Source: Minisyncoccota bacterium | Lineage (GTDB): Bacteria; Patescibacteriota; Minisyncoccia; Minisyncoccales; GWA2-38-27 | Direction: 5' to 3' | Length of the DNA: 64,000 nt | Assembly: GCA_028687715.1 (NCBI GenBank) | Contig: JAQTZP010000001.1 | Coordinates: forward strand, 39,876-103,875 | Shown here: positions 875 to 49,143 of the stretch, piece by piece | How the letters are laid out: each line of letters opens with the position of its first letter | Position numbering within the stretch: position 1 is the first letter of the stretch | The notes under the pieces: model-generated | Told to the model about the DNA's origin: nothing | The model's input: the letters and a program-made list of their open reading frames with translations, nothing else | The model's database searches: none | Program-made: the position numbers and the translations under genes

Positions 875-3103
875 CTTATTGAATCCGTAGCTTGCAAAAG
901 GCAGAATCCACTGCCAGAGTTTTTCAGCTATTTGTTTTCCTACTCCGTTTTGATCAGCTCCGTTTACAAACTTCTGTTCTTGGGCATGAAGAAGCTCTTT
1001 TATTTTCTTTCCTACAGCTTTTCTTAAAATATCTGCTTCAGCTAAAGTAAATCCTGCTATTTCCTGGGCTATTTTCATCAATTGTTCCTGATAAATGCAG
1101 ATTCCCTGGGTTTCTTCCAAGATAGGCTTGAGTTTTGGGTGAAGATACTGAATAGCTTTCTTTTTCTGCTTTCTGGCAATATAGTCTGGGATAAATTGAA
1201 TAGGTCCTGGCCTGTAAAGAGCCACCATGGCAGTAATGTCTTCAAAGCAGGTTGGCTTTAATAATTTCAAGTATTTTTTCATTCCATCGCTTTCTAACTG
1301 GAATACTCCTGTGGTATTGGCTCCTTGGAACAGCCTGTATGTTTTTTCATCGTCAAAAGGAATATTTTCAATATCTATTTTCTCATTTTTAAGCACGTAA
1401 ATTCTGGCTAAGGTGTCTTCAATTATTGTTAAGTTTTTAAGTCCTAAGAAGTCCATTTTTAGAAGCCCTAAGTCTTCAATAGCATGCATTTCATACTGGG
1501 TGACAATGCTTCCATCATCCTGGGTCGGGTGCTGGAGAGGGACTAAATCAGTCAAGGGCTCGGCTGATATCACAACTCCGCAGGCATGAGTTGAGGCGTG
1601 CCGGGCAACTCCTTCAAGCTTCTTTGCCAGGTCAATGAGTTTTTTAGCTTTTTCATCGCTAAAGTAGGCTTCTTTAAAATCGCTTACTTTTTTAAGAGAT
1701 TCATCTAAGCTGAAGCCGAATGGAACCATTTTAGCCATTTGGTCGCAGTAGCCGTAGGCATAGCCAAGAGCCCTTCCAACATCTCTGATTACTGCTCTTG
1801 AAGCCATTGTTCCAAAGGTGATAATCTGGGCAACATGGTTTTCTCCGTATTTTTGGGCGACATATTTAATAACTTCATCTCTTCTTCTGTCGGTAAAGTC
1901 AAGGTCAATGTCAGGCATAGATACTCTTTCAGGATTTAAAAACCTTTCAAAAAGAAGGCCGTGCTTTATCGGGTCTATGTTCGTGATATTTATAAGATAG
2001 GCGACAAGAGAACCTCCTACTGAGCCTCTGCCCGGCCCGACAATAATTCTGTTTTCTTTCGCCCAATTGACAAAGTCAGAGACAATTAAAAAATATGATG
2101 CAAAGCCGGTTTCTTTGATAACTTTAAGTTCGTATTCCAGTCTTTTTAAGATTTCTTCATCTGTTTTGTCTTTATATCTTTTTTTAAGACCTTCCAGGCA
2201 TAATTCTTTTAAATATTCATCAGGGGTTTTTCCATCAGGAACCTGATAATAGGGAAGCTTATTCTTTCCAAGCTCAAATTCAAAATTGCACATATCTTTT
2301 ATCCTCCGGGTATTTTCAACAGCTTCAGGGATGTCTTTAAAAGCTTCAATCATTTCTTCCGGCTTTCTTAATGAAAAGTCATCTGTTTTTAAGGTCAAGC
2401 GCTCTGGGTCATTGGGGCTTGCTCCGGTGTTAATAAGCATTAAGATGTCTTGAGCTTCGGCATCTTCTTTTTTTAAGTAATGGCTGTCATTGGTAGCCAC
2501 CAAAGGAATATCGTATTTTTTAGAAATAGAGATAAGCCCTTCATTTACTGTTTTCTGTTCATTTGAATTAGGATGGTGCTGAAGCTCTAAATAAAAGCTG
2601 TCTTTTCCGAAAATATCCTGATACCTTTTAGCCAGTTTTTCCGCCTCTTCCATTTCTTTTGAAAGAATCAAGCGGGGGATTTTGCCCTGGATGCAGGCGC
2701 TTAGTCCGATTAATCCTTCAGAATATTGAGATAAAAGCTCATTGTCTATTCTCGGTTTGTAGTAGAATCCTTCAAGGTGGGCTTTGGTTATCAATTTGAC
2801 TAAGTTTTTGTATCCTTTTTCATTCTTTACAAGCAGAACCAGATGGTATCTTTTGTCGTCAATATTGGGTCTGCGCTGATTCATGCCTTCAAAGGCGATA
2901 TATACTTCGGCTCCGATAATAGGCTTTATTCCCTTTGCCTTTGCTTTTTTGTAGAATTCCACGGCGCCGTAGATGGTTCCGTGGTCGGTTAAAGCAACAG
3001 AATCCATTTCTAATTCCTTGACGTAATCCAAAAGCTCGTCTATTTTAGGCAGGCCGTCTAAAAGCGAATAATGGCTGTGGACATGGAGATGAGTGAATTT
3101 CAT
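1..3103 (-). CDS. dnaE: DNA polymerase III alpha subunit (DnaE), N-terminal ~743 aa of extein followed by an intein; ORF runs off the window start
   Basis: Hand translation of the minus strand from ATG 3103: MKFTHLHVHSHYSLLDG (PHP domain). The frame stays open to position 1. Extein sequence ...WQWILPFASYGFNK ends at 875. Absent from the ORF track because there is no stop inside the window. Confidence 0.9.
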   Translation of the reverse strand, partial: MKFTHLHVHSHYSLLDGLPKIDELLDYVKELEMDSVALTDHGTIYGAVEFYKKAKAKGIKPIIGAEVYIAFEGMNQRRPNIDDKRYHLVLLVKNEKGYKNLVKLITKAHLEGFYYKPRIDNELLSQYSEGLIGLSACIQGKIPRLILSKEMEEAEKLAKRYQDIFGKDSFYLELQHHPNSNEQKTVNEGLISISKKYDIPLVATNDSHYLKKEDAEAQDILMLINTGASPNDPERLTLKTDDFSLRKPEEMIEAFKDIPEAVENTRRIKDMCNFEFELGKNKLPYYQVPDGKTPDEYLKELCLEGLKKRYKDKTDEEILKRLEYELKVIKETGFASYFLIVSDFVNWAKENRIIVGPGRGSVGGSLVAYLINITNIDPIKHGLLFERFLNPERVSMPDIDLDFTDRRRDEVIKYVAQKYGENHVAQIITFGTMASRAVIRDVGRALGYAYGYCDQMAKMVPFGFSLDESLKKVSDFKEAYFSDEKAKKLIDLAKKLEGVARHASTHACGVVISAEPLTDLVPLQHPTQDDGSIVTQYEMHAIEDLGLLKMDFLGLKNLTIIEDTLARIYVLKNEKIDIENIPFDDEKTYRLFQGANTTGVFQLESDGMKKYLKLLKPTCFEDITAMVALYRPGPIQFIPDYIARKQKKKAIQYLHPKLKPILEETQGICIYQEQLMKIAQEIAGFTLAEADILRKAVGKKIKELLHAQEQKFVNGADQNGVGKQIAEKLWQWILPFASYGFNKCLSGEAEIINAENGKLIKIKELFRNKSLIKETFSLDENNKIKSSKISGVFSNGIKPTFEVKTKSGRKITATSNHPFFTPRGWRNLEELKNGQVIAVPRIIPEPQKKVLIEDYKLSILGYLLAEGNFCHPHGFYFYSKSEEEIKDYCRNLEKFKNTTFTIDSSKSAKAVYSKRKSIKEKSEAVEWINSLGLRYKKAVEKFFPDFIFQLSNEQLKHLIGKMFQGNGCINFKNKCPQIFYAASSYQIAKCLQHLLLRFGIISILHTKKFRYREMIKIGYTVNISRYDNIYKFIN

Positions 3104-3169
3104 ATCGTTGATTATACTATCTTACTTTTTATCATTTTTAAAGTCAAACAATGTGATATTATTAATAAT

Positions 3170-3799
3170 ATGAAGCATCCTAATTTTAATGAAGAAAAAA
3201 GATTAAAAAGGAAAGGCTATAAATTTATAATAGGATTAGATGAAGTTGGAAGAGGCTGTTTAGCCGGACCTGTTTTAGCGGCTGCAGTTTATATAACTAA
3301 TAATAAGTTTAAAGATAAAGGCATCAAAGACTCAAAAAAGCTGTCTTTTAGAAAAAGAGAACAAATCTATAATGATTTAATGGCTCGTTCTGATGTCAAA
3401 TGGGGGATAGGCAGAGTTTCAGAGAAGATAATAGATAAGATAAATATCTTTGAAGCTGCAAAGCTGGCTATGAAAAAGGCTGTTTTAGATTTAGAGAGAA
3501 AGATGAATATAAAGTCTGATTTCTTGATTTTAGACGGAAACTTCAAGATAGGTATAGATACTTTGCAGAAATCAATTATCAAAGCTGATGAGAAGGTTTT
3601 ATCCTGCGCTCTTGCTTCTATTATTGCCAAGGTCAAAAGGGATAGAATTATGTCAAATTATCACAACAGATATCCAGATTATCTTTTTAATAGGAATAAA
3701 GGGTATGGGACAAAGGTTCATATCAAGCAAATTAAAAATAACGGACCCTGTTTTATCCACAGGAAAACTTTTTTTCCTGTGAAAGAAATGATAGAATAA
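3170..3799 (+). CDS. rnhB: Ribonuclease HII
   Basis: IIGLDEVGRGCLAGPVLAAAV motif. The internal ATG at 3170 is preferred, because the 3071 start would overlap the dnaE start. Confidence 0.85.
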   Translation: MKHPNFNEEKRLKRKGYKFIIGLDEVGRGCLAGPVLAAAVYITNNKFKDKGIKDSKKLSFRKREQIYNDLMARSDVKWGIGRVSEKIIDKINIFEAAKLAMKKAVLDLERKMNIKSDFLILDGNFKIGIDTLQKSIIKADEKVLSCALASIIAKVKRDRIMSNYHNRYPDYLFNRNKGYGTKVHIKQIKNNGPCFIHRKTFFPVKEMIE

Positions 3800-8952: not shown

Positions 8953-9027
8953 AACGTATTTTCGTTTACGATTATTAAAAACAATGCTACCATAATATTA
9001 ATTGGCGGCATTGTTTTTTTAACTAAA

Positions 9028-9702
9028 ATGATTAAGTTTGACATTATCACAATACTTCCTGAAACCTTTGGTTCATATTTTTCAGAAAGTTTAATAGCCA
9101 GAGCATTAAAAAAGAAGATTATAAAGATAAAGGTCCATAATTTGAGGAAATGGGCGAAAGACAAGCATAAAACTGTTGATGACAGGCCTTTTGGGGGAGG
9201 TTTAGGCATGGTTATGAAGGTTGAGCCGATTTATAGGGCTGTAAAGTCGTTAAAAGGGAAATCAAAGGCTAAAAGAAGGATAATAATGTTTACTCCCAGG
9301 GGAAAGAAGTTTGACCAAAGACTTGCGTATAAGCTTTCAAAGTTTGACCAGCTTATTTTAATATGTGGAAGATATGAAGGAGTAGACGAAAGAGTTGCAG
9401 AACATATAGCTGATATGGAATTATCAATAGGGGATTATGTGCTTATGGGAGGAGAGATTCCAGCTATGGTTTTAATAGAAACTGTATCTAGACTTATTCC
9501 CGGAGTTATCTCCAAAGAAGAGCTTTTAAAAGAAAGAATAACCAAAGATAAAGGTTTTATTGAACATGTTCAGTACACTAGACCTGAAGTTTTTGAACCT
9601 GAAAAAGGAGTAAAATGGAAGGTGCCGAAGGTTCTCCTATCGGGCAATCATAAAGAAATCGAGAAATGGAGAAAGAAATATTTAAGAGTCATTGAAAAAT
9701 AA
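9028..9702 (+). CDS. trmD: tRNA (guanine37-N1)-methyltransferase
   Basis: FDIITILPETF, DDRPFGGGLGMVMK, YEGVDERV, GGEIPAMVLIE motifs. Confidence 0.9.
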   Translation: MIKFDIITILPETFGSYFSESLIARALKKKIIKIKVHNLRKWAKDKHKTVDDRPFGGGLGMVMKVEPIYRAVKSLKGKSKAKRRIIMFTPRGKKFDQRLAYKLSKFDQLILICGRYEGVDERVAEHIADMELSIGDYVLMGGEIPAMVLIETVSRLIPGVISKEELLKERITKDKGFIEHVQYTRPEVFEPEKGVKWKVPKVLLSGNHKEIEKWRKKYLRVIEK

Positions 9703-9781
9703 GTTGTTTTGTAGTAAAACTAAAAATAGTTAAAAAACAGTAAATTTATATTAAATTCTAAACTTCTAAAAGAATAAACTA

Positions 9782-9866
9782 GGGTGCGTAGTCCCGTACG
9801 GCGCGGGAGCGGTCTGTAAAACCGTCGTCATTACTGGCCCAGGTGGTTCGACTCCACTCGCACCCA
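9782..9866 (+). tRNA. tRNA-Tyr (anticodon GTA), long variable arm, no encoded CCA
   Basis: Hand fold: acceptor GGGTGCG/CGCACCC; anticodon stem GCGGT/ACCGT with loop CTGTAAA; T arm GGTGGTTCGACTCCAC. Confidence 0.8.
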
Positions 9867-10679
9867 ATGTTATCTAAAAATAGATTAGAAAAATTATATA
9901 AAAGCGGTTTATCTATAAAAAGAATATCTGAAATTGAAAATTTCCCTTACACCACTATAAAATATTGGATGAAAAGATATAATATTCCCCGCAGATCGAG
10001 AGTGGAGGCATGTTTTTACGGATATTGGGGTAAAAACAAAGAATTTTCAAGAATCCCAAAGCTTTTAACTATCGATAAAATCAAGGATTTTTATTATCGG
10101 AAGGGTTATAGTGTTAAAGAAGTAGCGGATTTACTTGGTTATTCTCCAAAAAGCATATATAGATTTATGGATAGAAATGATCTGAAGAGAAGGTCAAGTC
10201 GCGATACAAACAATCTTATTTTTATAAGGAAAAAACCTTCTTTCACTATTAAAAATGATTTAAAATTAGAAGAAGAAAAATTAAAATTAGCTGGTGTTAT
10301 GTTATATTGGGCAGAAGGAGCTAAGGATTTAAAAGAAAGAGACTGGAATACTGTTGATTTCGCAAATAGCGATCCCGAAATGATAAAAATTTTCTTAAAA
10401 TTTTTACGTGATATTTGTGGCGTCTATGAAAAACGATTAAGGGTTCAGTTATATTGTTACGTTGATCAAGATATAAATTTTTTAAAAAATCATTGGAAGA
10501 CAACTACAGGTATATCATTAGAACAATTTAATAGACCTTATATAAGAAAAGATTTTTTACCTGAAAAAAAGGGGAAAATGAAATTTGGAGTAGTTCATAT
10601 TAGATATTCGGATAAAAAGTTATTTCTACAAATAAAAGATTGGACAAGACAGTATTTGAATAAAATGTTGCCGATGTAG
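9867..10679 (+). CDS. HTH-containing LAGLIDADG-like (homing-endonuclease-like) protein filling the tRNA-Tyr/tRNA-Thr spacer
   Basis: The ATG immediately follows the tRNA-Tyr discriminator base, and the stop lies inside the first 10 nt of tRNA-Thr. Two HTH-like segments are present (LSIKRISEIENFPYTTIKYWMKRYNI; YSVKEVADLLGYSPKSIYRFM). KLAGVMLYWAEGAKD resembles a LAGLIDADG motif. Confidence 0.5.
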   Translation: MLSKNRLEKLYKSGLSIKRISEIENFPYTTIKYWMKRYNIPRRSRVEACFYGYWGKNKEFSRIPKLLTIDKIKDFYYRKGYSVKEVADLLGYSPKSIYRFMDRNDLKRRSSRDTNNLIFIRKKPSFTIKNDLKLEEEKLKLAGVMLYWAEGAKDLKERDWNTVDFANSDPEMIKIFLKFLRDICGVYEKRLRVQLYCYVDQDINFLKNHWKTTTGISLEQFNRPYIRKDFLPEKKGKMKFGVVHIRYSDKKLFLQIKDWTRQYLNKMLPM

Positions 10680-10741
10680 TTCAGTGGTAGAACACGTTCT
10701 TGGTAAGAACGAGGCCGAGAGTTCAATTCTCTCCATCGGCT
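10670..10741 (+). tRNA. tRNA-Thr (anticodon GGT)
   Basis: Acceptor GCCGATG/CATCGGC; anticodon stem CGTTC/GAACG with loop TTGGTAA; T arm GAGAGTTCAATTCTCTC. Confidence 0.85.
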
Positions 10742-10767
10742 CTTAATAAATTAAATTCCTTAAAATT

Positions 10768-10929
10768 ATGGCAAAAAGAAAACCATTTGTTAAACTTCAG
10801 TGTCAGGAATGCAAAAGAATAAATTATTTTACTCATAAGTCAAAAAAAGCAGATGAGAAGAAATTAGAGATAAAGAAATTCTGCAACTGGTGCAGGAAGC
10901 ACACAGTCCACAAAGAGGCGAAAAGGTAA
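10768..10929 (+). CDS. rpmG: Ribosomal protein L33 (53 aa; below ORF-track cutoff)
   Basis: Hand translation: MAKRKPFVKLQCQECKRINYFTHKSKKADEKKLEIKKFCNWCRKHTVHKEAKR*. Confidence 0.85.
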   Translation: MAKRKPFVKLQCQECKRINYFTHKSKKADEKKLEIKKFCNWCRKHTVHKEAKR

Positions 10930-10949
10930 AATAAAATAGAATTAAGCTT

Positions 10950-11237
10950 ATGAAAAGAGATAATAAAGAAATAAAAATCGGTGCCTGTGGGATTTGTTGT
11001 GAGAGTTGTGGTCTCTACACGAGGGCTGTTTGTTCTGGCTGTAATAAAACCGAAGAAGGCGTGAGATTCTTGAAAAGCATCAATGCTAATTGTCCTATTT
11101 TGGAATGTGCTGTGAGAAATAAGATAGATGTGTGCTCAAGAGATTGTGAAAATTTCCCGTGTGATAAATTTAGAGATTGGCCATTGGCTAAAGAATGGCT
11201 CGAAATGTATAAAGAAAGATTAAAAAGAAAGAAATAG
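10950..11237 (+). CDS. Small Cys-rich protein, DUF3795-like (putative metal/Fe-S binding)
   Basis: GACGICCESCGLY...CSGC...CPILECA...CSRDCENFPCDKF cysteine pattern. The family name is recalled from memory. Confidence 0.5.
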   Translation: MKRDNKEIKIGACGICCESCGLYTRAVCSGCNKTEEGVRFLKSINANCPILECAVRNKIDVCSRDCENFPCDKFRDWPLAKEWLEMYKERLKRKK

Positions 11238-11283
11238 GTTGTCCCACCGTTAGGAAAAATCCGTTATAATAAAAACAGAATTT

Positions 11284-11793
11284 ATGCTTAATAAATTCGT
11301 CAAGGGGAAAGTTTATGTTTTTATTGATGCCGCTAATACGTTTTATGCCCAGCGGACTTTAGGATGGAAAATATCTTACGAAAAGTTAATGCGATACTTT
11401 AAAAAAGAATGCGGAGAAGATACCAAATGTTTTATTTATGCCGCCTATGACGAAAGCAAACAAGCCGAACAGAAGTTTTTAGATATGCTGGATATCAATG
11501 GCTATATTTTACGTACTAAAGCCATTAAGAAAATCCAGATAAGCGCTAACCGCGATAAACATAAGGGCAACTTGGATATGGAGTTAGCTTTTGAAATGGT
11601 GGATTTAACAGATAAATATGATACAGCGATATTGATGTCTGGAGATAGTGATTTTTCTGTCCCCATTGATAAGATTAAAAAGAGAAGAAAACAAATCATT
11701 GTTATATCCACACGAGGGCGGATTTCCCGTGAACTTTTGGAAAGAGCAAAGTATATTGATTTACGTAAATTAAGAGATGAAATTTCGCAATAA
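11284..11793 (+). CDS. NYN-domain (LabA/DUF88-like, PIN-like fold) protein
   Basis: KVYVFIDAANTFY...LDMELAFEMV...AILMSGDSDF...IIVISTRG matches the NYN/LabA acidic-residue pattern. Confidence 0.7.
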   Translation: MLNKFVKGKVYVFIDAANTFYAQRTLGWKISYEKLMRYFKKECGEDTKCFIYAAYDESKQAEQKFLDMLDINGYILRTKAIKKIQISANRDKHKGNLDMELAFEMVDLTDKYDTAILMSGDSDFSVPIDKIKKRRKQIIVISTRGRISRELLERAKYIDLRKLRDEISQ

Positions 11794-11837
11794 AAAAATC
11801 TGGAGCTGTCCCGAAAGACACTCCAGAGTGCTATCAC
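11792..11837 (-). ncRNA. Candidate ~45-nt RNA: consensus promoter followed directly by a UUCG-capped hairpin and U-tract, convergent on the NYN gene
   Basis: Minus strand: TTGACA (11872-11867), 17-nt spacer, TATACT (11849-11844). Hairpin 11827-11799 is UCUGGAGUGUCU-UUCG-GGACAGCUCCAGA. U7 lies at 11798-11792, overlapping the NYN stop codon. Confidence 0.45.
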
Positions 11838-11940
11838 ATTATCAGTATAACAAACCTCAAAAAGCCTGTCAAGGCCAGTTGTCCACTTTTTAAATTAAAA
11901 AAATTATCCTGTTAAAGGTCTGCCTTAAAATCCCTGTATT

Positions 11941-12003
11941 GAATTGAAAAAATTCTGCAAGTGGTGCCGGAAGCACACGGTGCATAAAGAAACGAAGAAA
12001 TAA
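11941..12003 (+). repeat. Second copy of the rpmG 3' end (coding potential retained: ELKKFCKWCRKHTVHKETKK*)
   Basis: Aligns with 10868-10929 (EIKKFCNWCRKHTVHKEAKR*), differing mostly at synonymous or conservative positions. Confidence 0.8.
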
Positions 12004-12011
12004 TAAATGAT

Positions 12012-12353
12012 ATGAGTATAATAGCTGAATACAATCCAGACTTGGCTTTGAGAAATATATCTGAGTTTAAGTCGGGAGACAGAAAAGAAGAAGAATGTAT
12101 TCCAGAAAACCTTAAAGGAGGTGAAATATACCCTTTCTTAAAGAAAGGCCAAAGGCATTACTGGTTAGAAGGTGAAATACCTTTAGTTGAAACAAAAGGA
12201 GAAGGAAAACTTTCAAGACCCAAAGCCAGTATAATAGTTTTAGAAGCTACTTACTTTCTGAAAGATAAAGAAGTTTGGACAAGAGGAAAGTATAAAGTTA
12301 TAGAATTTTTTAATGATGATCAGATCCATTTTGAGGGATTTGAAAAACTTTAG
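12012..12353 (+). CDS. Hypothetical protein (113 aa); its last codons run into the third rpmG-3' copy
   Basis: ORF only; no motif recognised. Confidence 0.4.
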   Translation: MSIIAEYNPDLALRNISEFKSGDRKEEECIPENLKGGEIYPFLKKGQRHYWLEGEIPLVETKGEGKLSRPKASIIVLEATYFLKDKEVWTRGKYKVIEFFNDDQIHFEGFEKL

Positions 12354-12392
12354 AAGTGGTATAGAAAGCACACGGTTCATAAAGAAGTAAAT
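12345..12392 (+). repeat. Third, decayed copy of the rpmG 3' end
   Basis: gaaaaactttagaagtggtatagaaagcacacggttcataaagaagtaa aligns to copy 2, but with an in-frame stop and both Cys codons lost. Confidence 0.65.
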
Positions 12393-12414
12393 AATTATAC
12401 TAATTTATCAAAAT

Positions 12415-12852
12415 ATGAGATTAATGATCTGCGGCAGTATGTATTTTGCCAAAGAGATGCTTAAAGCAAAGAAAACATTAGAAGAGCTCGGCCATGAAGT
12501 TAGGGTTCCTTCAGATGTTTATCAGTGTATTGAAAATCCTGATTTAAATATGGATTTAGAATACTGCTTGGATACTGATATTGATAAGAAGGATTTTAAT
12601 CAAGTGGCGGAAAGCGAGGGGATAGTAGTTTTGAATTATCCCAAGAATAATATCATAGGATATATAGGAGGAGCTTCTCTTATGGAAATAGGGATTGCCA
12701 GGCATCTTGGAAAGAAGATATTTTTATTGTATAATCCTCCAAGCGAGAAGGATTTAAGATACGCGCTTGAGGTAAAGGTATCAAGGCCTATAATACTTAA
12801 TGGAGATTTTAAAAACATTAATAATTATATAGATAATCGGGTCCGTAGTTAA
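12415..12852 (+). CDS. Nucleoside 2-deoxyribosyltransferase-like small Rossmannoid protein
   Basis: MRLMICGSMYF...GIVVLNY...GGASLMEIGIARHLGKKIFLL pattern. The 3' end overlaps tRNA-Trp by ~14 nt. Confidence 0.45.
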   Translation: MRLMICGSMYFAKEMLKAKKTLEELGHEVRVPSDVYQCIENPDLNMDLEYCLDTDIDKKDFNQVAESEGIVVLNYPKNNIIGYIGGASLMEIGIARHLGKKIFLLYNPPSEKDLRYALEVKVSRPIILNGDFKNINNYIDNRVRS

Positions 12853-12909
12853 ATGGTATAATTTTGGTCTCCAAAACCGAAGTTCTCTGTTCGAATCAGA
12901 GCGGACCCG
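12839..12909 (+). tRNA. tRNA-Trp (anticodon CCA)
   Basis: Acceptor GGGTCCG/CGGACCC; anticodon loop CTCCAAA; T arm CTCTGTTCGAATCAGAG. Confidence 0.85.
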
Positions 12910-12917
12910 CAGCACGA

Positions 12918-12943
12918 ACATGCCTTTTGGCGTGTATTTTTTT
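12918..12943 (+). terminator. Intrinsic terminator after tRNA-Trp
   Basis: ACATGCC-TTTT-GGCGTGT followed by ATTTTTTT. Confidence 0.6.
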
Positions 12944-12966
12944 ACATTTTAGGTTAAAATAAAATA

Positions 12967-13455
12967 ATGATAATGGAAATTAAAAAATATAAAGATAGAG
13001 TTTTAAGGAAAAAGTGCCAGGAAGTTAAAGAAATAACTCCGGAGATTTTAAAGATAATAGATGGTATGTCTGAAACGATTAAAAAAGAAAGAGGCGTTGG
13101 TTTAGCCGCTCCGCAGGTAGGAGTAAGCAAGAGAATGATAGTTATTAATCTTGATTTTATGAAATCGGGAGTTTTTGAAGTCATTAATCCTAAAATTATC
13201 AGAAAAAGCAAGGAAGAAGAAATAGGAGAAGAAGGATGTTTAAGCTTCCCCAATGTTTTTTTAGAGATTAAACGGTCCAAAGAAGTAGAGGTTATAGGCT
13301 TGGATAGATACGGCAGAAAGTTTGAAATGAAAGCCGAAGGGATATTGGCAAGGATTTTTCAGCATGAAATTGATCATTTAGACGGCATTTTATTTTTTGA
13401 CAGGCTTCCTTTTATTAAGAGGTTGAAATTCAAGATTTTTGCAAAGAAGAAATGA
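12967..13455 (+). CDS. def: Peptide deformylase
   Basis: GVGLAAPQVG, EGCLSFP and HEIDHLDG motifs. Confidence 0.9.
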   Translation: MIMEIKKYKDRVLRKKCQEVKEITPEILKIIDGMSETIKKERGVGLAAPQVGVSKRMIVINLDFMKSGVFEVINPKIIRKSKEEEIGEEGCLSFPNVFLEIKRSKEVEVIGLDRYGRKFEMKAEGILARIFQHEIDHLDGILFFDRLPFIKRLKFKIFAKKK

Positions 13456-14072
13456 ACTTAATAGATTCTTTGATAAAAGACAATTGGCTTAAAACTCCTT
13501 TGATAATAGAGGCCTTTAGAAAGATTAAAAGGGCTGATTTTCTGCCAGAGGGAATCACTGAACTGGCCGAATTAAACGAAGCAATTCCTATTGGATTCGG
13601 ACAAACCATTTCTCAGCCGCTTGTTGTTGCTTTTATGATAGAGCAGTTAAATCCTAGACCAGGCCATAAAATCTTAGATATTGGTTCTGGTTCAGGATGG
13701 ACCACTGCTTTATTGTCGTATATTGTAGGAAGTAAATCTGAAGGTAAGGTTATAGCGCTTGAGATAGTGCCGGAGCTAAAGGAATTCGGAGAGGAAAATG
13801 CATCAAAGTACGACTTTATTAAAAAAGGCATAGCTGAATTTATTTCTATTGACGGCTCCTTCGGCTATTTAAAAAAAGCTCCCTATGACGGGATAATAGC
13901 TTCCGCTAGTTCTCAGATAATTCCTGAACCTTGGAAAGAACAATTGAAAATAGGAGGAAGAATCGTTGCTCCTGTTAAATCATCTATCTGGGTCTTAGAG
14001 AAGAAATCTGAAAGAGAATTCATTGAAGCTGAATATCCTGGTTTCAGCTTCGTTCCCCTGGTTTCAAAATAA
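13452..14072 (+). CDS. pcm: Protein-L-isoaspartate O-methyltransferase
   Basis: GFGQTISQP and ILDIGSGSGW (SAM-binding) motifs. Confidence 0.8.
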   Translation: MNLIDSLIKDNWLKTPLIIEAFRKIKRADFLPEGITELAELNEAIPIGFGQTISQPLVVAFMIEQLNPRPGHKILDIGSGSGWTTALLSYIVGSKSEGKVIALEIVPELKEFGEENASKYDFIKKGIAEFISIDGSFGYLKKAPYDGIIASASSQIIPEPWKEQLKIGGRIVAPVKSSIWVLEKKSEREFIEAEYPGFSFVPLVSK

Positions 14073-15070
14073 TGAAGTATTTTAGATTTACAATTATATC
14101 ATTGGTTGTTCTGTCAGGCATAGCTTCTTTTTTTATTTGGATAGGCATTTATCTTCCAATAGATTCAAACTCAAAAGAGGAGATGGTTTTTTCAATAAAA
14201 AGAGGAGAAGGATTAAATGACATATCCTTGAATTTAGAAAAAGAGGGGATTCTAAGACGGGGTTGTCTTTTCAGATTATATGTTATTTTAACGGGAAAAC
14301 AGTCCAAACTTAAAGCTGGAAACTATATCCTTTTAAAATCAATGAGCATTGATGAAATTGCTGATAAGTTTGTCTTAGGGGACTTTATCAAGAATAAAGT
14401 TACCATAGTAGAGGGCTGGAGTCTAAAAGATATCGCTGATTATCTTGAAGAAAAAGGAATCATAAAAAAAGATGATTTTATAGCATCAGCTGGTTCTAAT
14501 AACGATTTAATCAGTAAATACAGCTTTTTGTCTGACAAGCCCGAGGGATTAAGCTTGGAAGGCTATCTTTTCCCAGATACTTATGAAATATTTGAGGGGG
14601 AGACAGCTAGTGAGATTATCAGGGATATGCTTGATAATTTTAACAGAAAACTGACAACTGAAATTAAAGAAGAGATTAAGAATCAGCAAAAAAGCATCTT
14701 TGATATTGTCACAATGGCGTCAATGATAGAGAAGGAGGTTATAACAATAGAAGATAAAAAAGTCGTTTCAGGGATTTTGTGGAAGAGGCTTAAAACAGGA
14801 ATGCCTCTTCAGGTAGACGCCACTATCTCATATATAACAGACAAGAAAACCACAGCTATCTCATTATCAGATTTAAATATTGATTCCTTTTACAACACCT
14901 ATAAGTATAAAGGGCTTCCTATAGGTCCTATTTCCAATCCGGGAATAGAAAGCATATTAGCGGCAGTTTATCCTACAGAAAGCGAATACTGGTATTATCT
15001 TTCAACTCCTGAAGGAGAAACAATTTTCAATAAGACTTTAAAAGAGCATGAGCTTGATAGGACTAAATAA
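14072..15070 (+). CDS. mltG: Endolytic murein transglycosylase MltG (YceG-like)
   Basis: N-terminal TM helix, LEGYLFPDTY, and QVDATISY near the C-terminus. Confidence 0.8.
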   Translation: MKYFRFTIISLVVLSGIASFFIWIGIYLPIDSNSKEEMVFSIKRGEGLNDISLNLEKEGILRRGCLFRLYVILTGKQSKLKAGNYILLKSMSIDEIADKFVLGDFIKNKVTIVEGWSLKDIADYLEEKGIIKKDDFIASAGSNNDLISKYSFLSDKPEGLSLEGYLFPDTYEIFEGETASEIIRDMLDNFNRKLTTEIKEEIKNQQKSIFDIVTMASMIEKEVITIEDKKVVSGILWKRLKTGMPLQVDATISYITDKKTTAISLSDLNIDSFYNTYKYKGLPIGPISNPGIESILAAVYPTESEYWYYLSTPEGETIFNKTLKEHELDRTK

Positions 15071-35138: not shown

Positions 35139-35252
35139 AGTTACGCTGTATAAAAGAATATCATTGGAGTTGAAAATAATATCTTTATCATATTTCTGTT
35201 TTCCTACAGTGCAAACTATTGACAAAATATAATAGTTTGCTAAAGTGAAAAT

Positions 35253-35293
35253 GTCATACCTCTGGAGATCCTTCGGGATCTCCGGATTTTTTT
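35253..35293 (+). ncRNA. Second copy of the promoter-plus-UUCG-hairpin micro RNA, convergent on the second NYN gene
   Basis: TTGACA (35219-35224), 16 nt, TAAAGT (35241-35246). Hairpin UCUGGAGAUCC-UUCG-GGAUCUCCGGA (35261-35286) followed by U7 (35287-35293). Confidence 0.45.
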
Positions 35294-35314
35294 ATTACAT
35301 AGAAATTTGTTCTT

Positions 35315-35801
35315 TTAGTTTTTTAAGTTTATATACTTTGCTCTCTCTATAAGTTTCCGTGAAATATGACCTTTAGTAGACATCACAATAACCCACTTGT
35401 TTTGCCTTTTTAATTCATCGACTAAAGCTGTGAAATCGCTGTCACCAGACATTAAAATAAAAGTATCAAAATTATTTGTATTCTTTAAAGCATCAATAAT
35501 TAATTCAGCGTATAAATCGCCTTTTCTTTCATAAACATTAGGGGCAATTTTAATCATTTTTACTTCTTTTGACGTAATCTTATATCCATAACTCTATCAT
35601 TCTATTAAGAAATTTTGCTTGTTTATGGTCCTTGCCTATTTTTCCTGTATAAAGATAAAGTTCTACAAGTTCACATTCTTGTTCAAAATATGTCTTTAAT
35701 TTCTGATAATCTATTCTCCAGCCCAAATTTTTCTGCGAATAGAGAATATTTGCCGCATCTATAAATACACAAACTTTGCCTTTAACAAATTTGCTTATCA
35801 T
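35315..35801 (-). pseudogene. NYN-domain gene, paralog of 11284..11793, split by a frameshift into 73-aa and 80-aa ORFs
   Basis: N-terminal ORF: MISKFVKGKVCVFIDAANILY. A frame change lies near 35580 (...NRMIELWI* against GYKITSKEVKMIKI in another frame). C-terminal ORF: ...FILMSGDSDF...VIVMSTKG. Confidence 0.65.
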
Positions 35802-35857
35802 AAAATCTGATTTAAATTATAACATAAAAACCGAGGAAAATCTCGGTTTTTTTCTTG

Positions 35858-35930
35858 CGGCCCCAACGGGAGTCGAACCCGTGTTACATGGTTGAGAACC
35901 ATGCGTCCTAAGCCGCTAGACGATGGGGCC
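35858..35930 (-). tRNA. tRNA-Glu (anticodon CTC)
   Basis: Reverse complement: GGCCCCA...CATGG-TTCTCAA-CCATG...ACGGGTTCGACTCCCGT-TGGGGCC-G. Confidence 0.85.
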
Positions 35931-48597: not shown

Positions 48598-49143
48598 CAA
48601 AGTTAGAGTGCAATCTGAGAAACCGAGATTTTTATTCAAACTGTGGTGTTGTCTCCGAGTAATCCAAAGAAATATTCTATATTGTTAAAAAATTAAAACT
48701 AAAGGTTTAAAAGAAAAACCCAGCATGGACGAACCATACAAGGGTTTTTTTCGTAGTAATCATCTTCATTATAGCAAAACATAAAAATGTATCAATAGTA
48801 TGTTGCCGAAAGGATAGATTAGCAAGGTTTATGAATATTATTTTACAGAATCTCGATTTAGGAATGAAGCGATTCGTGCTTTTGAAGAATTTTTTGACTG
48901 TTCAGATTTGCGTGAAAAGGGGACTGTAAACGTAAAAACTGATCCCGTTAGAGCGACCGAATTTTATTTATAATAAAGAAGTGATAAAATTTAAAAGAGA
49001 GAGGAAATAGAAATCGCTAAGCAAGCGATTTTTTAGTTATAATGATTCGGGTATTGACAGCCTATAGTTATGGGTGTATATTCATAATAGATGGTCAATT
49101 CAAAGGTCGGGCTGTCTGTTAAATAATAATAATCTATAAAAAT

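Follow-up and report, generated by a model that had tools for sequence, protein, structure and literature searches.

A NYN-domain gene with a nuclease-like product and a gene for a small hairpin RNA (sRNA) appear to form a two-component module in Patescibacteria and some of their neighbours. We analysed a stretch of 64,000 nucleotides from a Minisyncoccota bacterium (GenBank assembly GCA_028687715.1, contig JAQTZP010000001.1, positions 39,876 to 103,875 of the forward strand), referred to below as the window. Its NYN gene lies on the plus strand at 11284..11793, and directly opposite the 3' end of this gene a promoter on the minus strand is predicted to drive an RNA of only 46 nt (11837-11792). 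An initial annotation, made from the letters of the window alone, had proposed that the two belong together, and our data bear this out: the pair is found at 76 of 77 NYN loci with readable downstream sequence, the stem of the RNA covaries, its 5' tail is conserved, and the RNA subtype tracks the NYN subclade. The reading we lean towards, tentatively, is that the RNA inhibits its cognate nuclease or serves as its antitoxin, with a logic like that of type III systems but outside the known type III families.

The sRNA is predicted to have both its own promoter and its own terminator. The promoter (11844..11872, minus strand) consists of a -35 box TTGACA at 11872-11867, a 17-nt spacer and a TG-extended -10 box TATACT at 11849-11844; it scores 11/12 and ranks at the top of the 32 promoter-like sites in 9000-14500. 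The G at 11837, located 7 nt past the -10 box, is the likely transcription start. From there the RNA would begin with a single-stranded 5' tail of 10 nt, GUGAUAGCAC (11828..11837), which is conserved across loci, followed by a hairpin at 11799..11827 of 12 pairs with one conserved bulged G and a UUCG loop closed by U.G, and by a U7 terminator tract (11792..11798) whose last two bases fall on the AA of the NYN stop codon TAA (11791-11793). The initial annotation had described a near-consensus promoter opposite the NYN 3' end, about 10 nt leading to a 12-bp UUCG hairpin, and a U7 overlapping the stop codon, and we recovered each of these elements, with the TG extension and the bulged G as further detail. 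The hairpin folds at -17.7 kcal/mol (z = -3.07), and none of 200 shuffled sequences folds equally well.

The hairpin is predicted to terminate transcription in one direction only, i.e. for the sRNA and not for the NYN gene, because a U-tract is present on the sRNA strand alone; the NYN strand has an A-run before the hairpin and no U-run after it. The window list of open reading frames (ORFs) holds no gene on the minus strand around the unit that would need the terminator of the sRNA. By its sequence the unit is thus an sRNA gene with its own promoter and its own intrinsic terminator that serves no ORF. The same reasoning leaves the NYN gene without a canonical terminator of its own, and its mRNA should therefore hold an exact complement of the sRNA. 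A small ORF inside the RNA was considered and rejected, as AUGUGA in the type A subtype is a start codon with a stop right behind it, and the variants do not all keep the AUG. Rfam 15 gives no match at the element, none in the whole window at the gathering thresholds and none in 11700-12000 at E <= 10.

Such units are scarce in the window. The combination of a strong promoter, a short hairpin and a T-run occurs just three times in the 64 kb, and two of the three adjoin NYN loci, of which the window has only two. The third unit, at ~48712-48795 on the minus strand, has the promoter TTGATA-16-TATAAT (11/12), a hairpin with the arms CCCUUGUAUGG and CCAUGCUGGG and then U5; it has no neighbouring gene and lies inside an ORF-free stretch (48600-49140). 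It may be an orphan of the NYN-linked kind next to a decayed gene. The 8-mer CTCTGGAG was dropped as a candidate recurrent element, since three others of its five window copies are in unrelated coding sequence.

The NYN protein looks like an active nuclease. The gene is intact and encodes a LabA-like NYN protein of 169 aa, which matches PF01936 over residues 9-159 with E = 6.8e-27 and 95.2 bits against a cut-off of 24.2. Five acidic residues, D15, D98, E100, D121 and D123, are invariant in an alignment of 20 homologues. The AlphaFold2 model has a pLDDT (predicted local distance difference test) of 88.8, and its best fold matches according to Foldseek are 2qip (the LabA-like protein VPA0982, with a template-modelling (TM) score of 0.78) and the MARF1 NYN domain 5yaa; the likeness to MARF1 and LabA-like proteins is also found at the sequence level. 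The model places the protein in the PIN-like fold with acidic metal-binding residues, and the invariant acidic set together with the NYN fold suggests that the nuclease is active. Residues 82-95 form a variable beta-hairpin of low model confidence. PADLOC gave weak matches only, to a LabA-like NYN model and to HEC-09, a candidate defence gene with protection against none of the phages tested. The function of bacterial LabA-like NYN proteins is listed as unknown with no RNA partner named, and tRNA or rRNA processing has been proposed as the role of NYN genes (PMC5499597).

The two genes differ in predicted promoter strength, as the RNA has a near-consensus promoter and the NYN gene only a -10 element. 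This element, a -10-like TATAAT at 11265..11270 on the plus strand, 13 nt 5' of the NYN ATG, is probably the NYN gene's own promoter and would give a near-leaderless mRNA. TG-extended -10 boxes are found at a matching distance from the start codon in the NYN homologues.

The linkage between the NYN gene and the predicted RNA unit is tight across the relatives examined. NYN homologues in Patescibacteria fall into 483 clusters, those listed being 67-91% identical. Starting from NYN, with one genome per species, we examined the best 80 of 279 relatives and tallied the loci by a regular-expression scan, a covariance model and inspection. The unit is present at 76 of the 80 loci; three are cut by the contig end, and the only one without it, L019, has an NYN gene truncated at residue 141. 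The linkage spans NYN identities from 93% down to ~41%. The initial annotation had allowed that NYN homologues in other genomes might lack the convergent promoter and hairpin, and this possibility fails decisively. The genome bins with the unit include Giovannoni-, Staskawicz-, Nealson-, Taylor-, Zambryski-, Uhr-, Falkow-, Sung-, Gottesman- and Daviesbacteria (crude labels for many), and some Omnitrophota and Planctomycetota bins, whose labels are likewise often crude, carry it as well. NYN-first and RNA-first scans together give more than 100 independent loci with the promoter-hairpin beside NYN. No comparable convergent unit was seen at the NYN genes of Sinorhizobium and Methylorubrum plasmids (~34% identical) or at viral NYN genes (~32% identical).

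The layout of the unit is also well conserved. Past the NYN stop, on the opposite strand, we commonly find TTGACA, a spacer of 16-18 nt, a TG-extended TATACT-like -10 box, ~6 nt, a short tail, a GC-rich hairpin with a variable loop, and then a T-run, which in the commonest geometry ends exactly 2 nt into the NYN stop codon. Among 117 anchor matches, representing ~80 true elements, TTGACA is found in 77, TGn in 78 and the tail G at 6-7 nt past the -10 box in 95. Hence the -35 and -10 boxes, the TG motif, the spacer length and the distance to the tail are kept in ~80 independent elements.

Compensatory changes keep the stem, as is the mark of a structured RNA. We measured covariation in type A over 11 pairs of 26 distinct sequences, with 500 shuffles and slid-partner controls. 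Standard pairs make up 98.2% of the pair cells, and both sides have changed in 6 of the 11 pairs. The covariation score is 0.388 versus 0.133 ± 0.019 in the shuffles and no more than 0.10 for slid partners; depending on the measure, 0 or 1 of the 500 shuffles reaches the observed value (0/500 for the score). The stems of type B are wholly replaced, yet all of them fold, with energies of -10 to -23 kcal/mol, examples of their arms being UCUCCCCGC/GCGGGGGGA, UCUGGAGAUCC/GGAUCUCCGGA and UCAGGGGCCGG/CCGGCCCCUUGA.

Several variants have features that a plain terminator does not predict. Locus L046 (~3022-3138) has a type A unit without a U-tract and a type B unit directly after it, both under one promoter; L044 (1638-1736) has an additional 5' hairpin before the tail; and in L074-L080, the most distant group, the tail GUCAUCC forms pairs with GUGAUUU, an extension at the 3' end, and this adds a closing helix. 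That the hairpin works only as a bidirectional terminator, a possibility raised at the outset, is unlikely in view of the U-tract on one strand, the conserved tail, the L046 unit lacking a U-tract and the closing helix of the distant group.

The 5' tail starts 6-7 nt past the -10 box, i.e. at the predicted start, and is invariant at G6, A7, U8, C11 and A12, with a conservation equal to that of the promoter hexamers; the bulged G in the stem is conserved too. Tail variants sort with the NYN subclades and with the beta-hairpin residues 82-95. The tail GUGAUAGCAC goes with the subclade feature FIDAAN with KKIQISANRDKHKGN, the tails GUGAUGACAC and GUGAUAACAC with the FIDAEN clades, GACGAACC with PVK.IR...YQWKGDFDV, GUCAAACC and GUCAUACC with EVKRIK.S..YEWKGNLDV, and GUCAUCC with the NYN group of 41-45% identity. 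As the two genes are linked, this match between subtype and subclade is to be expected from common ancestry; it is also compatible with co-evolution.

Recognition of the RNA by the NYN protein is favoured over base pairing, because no complementarity between tail and NYN mRNA is conserved and the complement of the tail is no more frequent in the window than expected by chance. The duplexes of tails with NYN mRNAs equal those of shuffled tails (median z 0.15), and their positions are not conserved. Antisense regulation had been offered as one option in the initial annotation, and the version of it that we tested, par-like pairing of the 5' tail with the NYN mRNA, is not supported by these numbers. 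The 5' end of 16S rRNA (AGAGUUUGAU) was also tried as a target of the tail and given up as an unsupported lead: type B fits, and GACGAACC and type A fit poorly. This comparison was made by inspection against the universal 27F primer site.

The RNA appears often to outlive the nuclease gene. We searched metagenome contigs with the type A 17-mer GTGATRACACTCTGGMG, and the counts given here refer to the matches listed. Among the 120 matches listed there are 37 candidates, the remainder being chance matches in coding DNA. The complementary hairpin arm is present in 30 of these candidates, and the other 7 are cut by the contig end before the arm would be visible; three of the 7 have no upstream promoter and look like chance matches. 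Twenty-five true elements have room for a partner, and the convergent NYN gene is intact at 18 of them and decayed at 7. The remnant consists of the last 24-42 codons only in L150, L152, L156 and L166 and of ~10 codons in L130, the gene is frameshifted in L143, and L147 has no trace of NYN and a degenerate sRNA promoter too. A full-length NYN gene without the RNA was not seen among the NYN-first and RNA-first loci. This asymmetry of loss, in which NYN decays and the RNA stays, is a prediction of a toxin-antitoxin pair. In two loci an orphan type A unit is located right after gyrB (L010 2338-2385 and L017 2342-2388), ~120 nt 5' of an intact NYN module with its own type A sRNA.

The second NYN locus of the window gives a further example of an intact unit next to a dead gene. 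Its promoter (35219..35246, plus strand) reads TTGACA-16-TAAAGT and is TG-extended, and the type B-like sRNA at 35253..35293 (plus strand) has the tail GUCAUACC at 35253-35260, an 11-bp UUCG hairpin at 35261-35286 (-20.2 kcal/mol, z = -3.72) and a U7 at 35287-35293; our covariance model R1 scores it at 28.6 bits. Promoter, tail and hairpin are all intact. The NYN paralogue at 35295..35801 on the minus strand is 48% identical to the first copy and is judged a pseudogene, because frameshifts interrupt it at two places, one being an A-run close to the C-terminus, and Tyr has taken the place of the invariant Asp98. The sequence points to an old paralogue and not to a recent duplication. The initial annotation had taken the whole unit to be duplicated here; it was right that a second promoter-hairpin stands beside a NYN gene, and wrong in that the copy is no simple duplicate, with its NYN gene 48% identical and dead and its RNA of another subtype. 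The second NYN gene sits directly downstream of a tRNA-Glu gene (35857-35930).

The NYN gene and the sRNA together behave, as judged from their surroundings, like a mobile two-gene cassette of ~640 bp. No neighbour gene family is common to the loci, any one family being shared by at most 7 of the 80, and several genomes have 2-3 modules each. The window and locus L001 have in common a block at 11255-11895, which is 92.5% identical, runs from ~30 nt 5' of the NYN start to ~20 nt past the -35 box and is surrounded by differing flanks. In the window the cassette is delimited by a 66-nt repeat, whose reference copy is the 3' end of rpmG (L33) at 10873..10938 on the plus strand. A displaced duplicate of this end (77%) is found at 11947..12012 (plus strand), ~50 nt past the block shared with L001 and 75 nt past the -35 box, and a third copy (65%) at 12342..12407. 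These repeats delimit small cassettes, one with DUF3795, NYN and the sRNA and then one with a 113-aa ORF. L001 has the same rpmG duplicate after its module plus one further copy, and L003 is syntenic (trmD, rpmG, NYN module, def) without DUF3795 and the genes that follow. The array looks like the trace of repeated integration at the 3' end of rpmG.

The module stands between direct repeats of 23-162 nt, 87-97% identical, in 12 or more further loci (L012, L076, L034, L026, L029, L022, L069, L073, L025, L028, L030 and L068). The repeat in L012 (2306-2467 vs 3051-3212) and in L076 (2356-2471 vs 3067-3182) consists of the sRNA promoter and the region upstream of it, and its left copy drives a different tail-hairpin-U RNA that is convergent on a different gene, i.e. 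a HEPN gene preceded by a MNT nucleotidyltransferase in L012 and a second NYN in L076. This arrangement suggests duplication or gene conversion of a promoter cassette. Integrase families are absent among the conserved neighbours, no genome-wide integrase search having been made. We rejected an attC or integron origin, as the stem base UCUGG...CCAGA has no R-box (GTTRRRY) and the promoter is conserved, unlike attC sites. A phage origin was rejected as well: the 17-mer gave only chance matches in IMG/VR, and tblastn found no homologue in GenBank phages. One contig classed as viral (L212, IMGVR_UViG_3300035698_027858, 3001-3600) has a full module with a 90% identical NYN, an R1 score of 58.7 bits and a DnaA-box-like TGTGGATAG upstream.

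Genes of toxin type are found near the module, and some of them have a convergent RNA of their own. The neighbours include HicAB and HEPN-MNT. Locus L031 (1609-4006) has three co-oriented modules with DUF3800, NYN and a second NYN (NYN'), each with its own convergent RNA. In L012 (1313-2340) the HEPN-MNT pair is followed by a convergent RNA of the form AGUAACGCU-ACCCCAGG-GUAAAA-CCUGGGG-U-rich, and this type of RNA recurs in L023 as a minus-strand unit convergent with a 72-aa ORF. In L220 a NUDIX gene located downstream begins right next to the sRNA promoter, and helicase and PLD genes are located nearby.

On account of the linkage, the asymmetry of loss, the asymmetry of the promoters, the specificity of the subtypes, the mobile, multi-copy and repeat-flanked cassettes near toxin-type genes and the intact active site, we suggest that the RNA could neutralise the nuclease, the two forming a module for addiction or defence. 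The RNA antitoxin would act on the NYN protein itself. PIN-like 5' nucleases cut flap substrates in which a 5' single strand abuts a duplex, and as the RNA resembles such a 5' flap, it may act as a pseudo-substrate that fills the active site of NYN. An excess of the RNA would be maintained by constant strong transcription; if transcription stopped or the cassette were lost, the short RNA would decay and the nuclease would be freed, possibly leading to addiction or abortive-infection behaviour. This reading presupposes transcription of the RNA, its binding to NYN and toxicity of free NYN.

Several observations weigh against an antitoxin role. The NYN identity of 65-90% across many species bins is unusually high for a toxin. 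In L220 (3481-5585) the NYN gene overlaps the upstream gene of 507 aa (ATGA), as a gene in a housekeeping operon would. The match between RNA subtype and NYN subclade is expected from linkage or shared descent alone. The tandem repeats upstream on the same strand, which make up the type III layout, are not found here. The NYN transcripts probably read through the hairpin, so that pairing in cis with the sRNA is possible. Finally, a convergent RNA stands at a HEPN gene already paired with a protein antitoxin, MNT, and the convergent-RNA design may serve a general purpose, e.g. expression control or insulation.

A broader version of the antitoxin proposal is possible, and we regard it with some doubt. 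Patescibacteria and their neighbours could hold an unrecognised general class of mobile cassettes made of a nuclease (NYN, DUF3800, possibly HEPN) and a convergent, strongly transcribed sRNA with a terminator at its end that serves as a dedicated pseudo-substrate antitoxin of the adjacent nuclease. In this class the NYN pair would be the simplest case, with a 5'-flap-like hairpin blocking a PIN-like active site.

The main rival to an antitoxin that acts on the protein is control in cis, with the logic of type I systems, either by antisense pairing or by transcriptional interference, and we give it roughly one chance in four. In the antisense form the abundant sRNA would pair with the 3' end of the read-through NYN mRNA and lead to its cleavage by a double-strand-specific RNase. 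In the form of interference, head-on transcription from the strong promoter would block or truncate the transcription of NYN; the expression of the nuclease would be low either way. The convergent geometry with a U-tract overlapping the stop codon in most loci fits this well, as does the NYN gene's lack of a canonical terminator, and the presence of unrelated RNAs in the same design at DUF3800 and at HEPN with its protein antitoxin suggests a generic control device. However, any sequence would do for purely antisense action, whereas within subclades the tail is conserved, and the bulged G of the stem is kept. UUCG and GNRA loops are unfavourable for loop-loop kissing, and the tail has no par-like complementarity to the NYN 5' region. 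Nor does cis control sit well with orphan units that stay intact beside gyrB or beside NYN remnants, or with the tandem units of L046.

It is less probable, in our estimate, that NYN and the sRNA are partners in a functional ribonucleoprotein or in processing, with the sRNA as a cofactor or fixed guide that takes NYN to a conserved cellular RNA (in rRNA or tRNA maturation) or else as an RNA matured by NYN. The very high conservation of NYN, the seed-like conserved single-stranded 5' tail, the operon-like overlap in L220 and the role in tRNA or rRNA processing proposed for NYN genes (PMC5499597) all speak in its favour. Against these stand the loss or decay of NYN at 7 of the 25 RNA-first elements among the matches listed and at the second window copy, and a gene context that is not conserved, with repeats flanking the module like an insertion. 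The window has no excess of sites complementary to the tail, and the 16S 5' end, taken as the 27F site, seems to fit the tail of type B but not those of the other subtypes.

We think it improbable that the sRNA is an independent gene and NYN a selfish passenger, which repeatedly landed beside the sRNA or came to share its terminator and later decayed. Orphan sRNAs whose NYN is reduced to its last 10-42 codons or is gone could be explained in this way, and so could the type A orphans after gyrB (L010, L017), the promoter cassettes common to adjacent modules with different RNAs and genes, and the third, orphan-like unit of the window (~48712-48795). Yet nearly all the listed elements of the RNA-first scan have NYN or a remnant of it, no NYN-free population being seen; the sole element with no NYN trace, L147, has a degenerate promoter, and the RNA subtype follows the NYN clade. 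An ordinary terminator hairpin next to a chance promoter-like sequence, with no significant RNA product, is very improbable: a hairpin and a U-run alone make a standard intrinsic terminator and AT-rich genomes yield many promoter-like matches, but the promoter features and the distance to the tail are conserved in ~80 elements, no gene on the sRNA strand needs a terminator, the U-tract is on that strand only, and the 64 kb hold just three units, two of them at the only two NYN loci.

A DnaA-box-like motif precedes the sRNA promoter more often than expected. In the window it is weak, TTGTCCACT at 11879..11887 (7/9 to TTATCCACA; no strand assigned), just upstream of the -35 box and within the block conserved in L001. 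The motif TTATCCACA or TTATCCCCA, in either orientation with at most one mismatch and within 80 nt upstream of the -35 box, is found in 24 of 68 loci versus ~2.5 expected. It is mostly located 13-30 nt upstream of the -35 box, and it is the top 7-mer there that is not made of A and T only. DnaA boxes show no excess over the whole window. We rejected a replication origin as an explanation, as there are two or more modules per genome and the GC skew does not switch at either module of the window.

Upstream of the rpmG repeats, an ORF of 278 aa (9843-10679) with helix-turn-helix matches (HTH_23, Terminase_5-like) lies between tRNA-Tyr (9782-9866) and tRNA-Thr (10670-10742) and reaches into both of them; it is possibly a gene of mobile or homing type.

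We found no description of the NYN-sRNA pair in the literature searched (full text, covering NYN/LabA-like, DUF3800, Patescibacteria and toxin-antitoxin) and none in Rfam 15. LabA-type NYN proteins are widespread in bacteria, and a dedicated RNA conserved across a superphylum would be their first RNA partner and the first concrete handle on them. The hosts have tiny genomes, in which accessory and defence functions are poorly understood. If the inhibitor model is true, the pair represents a new toxin-antitoxin design, with a PIN-like toxin and a single, convergently encoded RNA antitoxin. The DUF3800 RNA motifs, without a known function since 2017, would be accounted for as well if the general-class reading is true, because the same architecture is found at DUF3800 genes and at a HEPN gene in the same loci. 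An RNA of 46 nt and a protein of 169 aa are small enough for direct biochemical and structural tests, and a specific RNA-nuclease pair might be a useful tool.

Among the known systems, the convergent type I loci are close in geometry. In par/Fst of pAD1 (RNA I-RNA II) and in txpA/RatA and bsrG/SR4 of Bacillus, the toxin mRNA and a short antitoxin RNA meet at a common terminator hairpin; the antitoxin has the stronger promoter, and the toxins are small hydrophobic peptides. In the NYN pair the overlap would be limited to the hairpin and the tail. It differs from type I in having a soluble nuclease-fold protein of 169 aa and no par-like 5' complementarity, for which we tested.

The type III systems (ToxIN, CptIN and TenpIN; also AvcID) resemble the proposed pair in that a protein toxin stands beside a small, abundant, cognate non-coding RNA, in a small mobile module that is often present in several copies. 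The logic proposed for the NYN pair, inhibition of the protein by the bound RNA, is theirs as well. ToxIN-type toxins are endoribonucleases, and AvcD is a deaminase. The ToxIN-type fold is ToxN/AbiQ-like, and that of NYN is PIN-like instead. In the ToxIN type the antitoxin is a tandem-repeat array located upstream on the same strand, with a terminator between array and toxin, and the toxin cuts the array into units. Unlike this, the NYN module has a single unit (tandem only in L046), which is on the opposite strand, downstream, and under its own promoter. As for the protein alone, the LabA-like NYN proteins (COG1432; 2qip; MARF1 NYN domain) have the same domain, fold and acidic active-site residues as the window NYN.

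The closest described kind is given by the DUF3800 RNA motifs, which like the NYN units are terminated small RNAs tied to a single nuclease-fold gene family. The motifs DUF3800-I to -XI are small RNAs, several with intrinsic terminators, that are found on either strand and whose function is unknown (Weinberg et al. 2017, PMC5737381; Rfam RF02961 and others). NYN goes unmentioned in the main text of this publication. Rfam places DUF3800-II in two of our loci, L192 (10363-10432) and L016 (5440-5507), and at no NYN element. It is built like the NYN unit, with TTGACA-16-TATGCT, GATAAT, the RNA and a terminator, and in L192 it runs head-on towards a truncated DUF3800 gene (9894-10265), as the NYN units do towards NYN. 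The DUF3800 motifs differ in that their partner is RNase H-like, whereas the partner of the NYN unit is PIN-like and its RNA is simpler, consisting of a tail and one hairpin.

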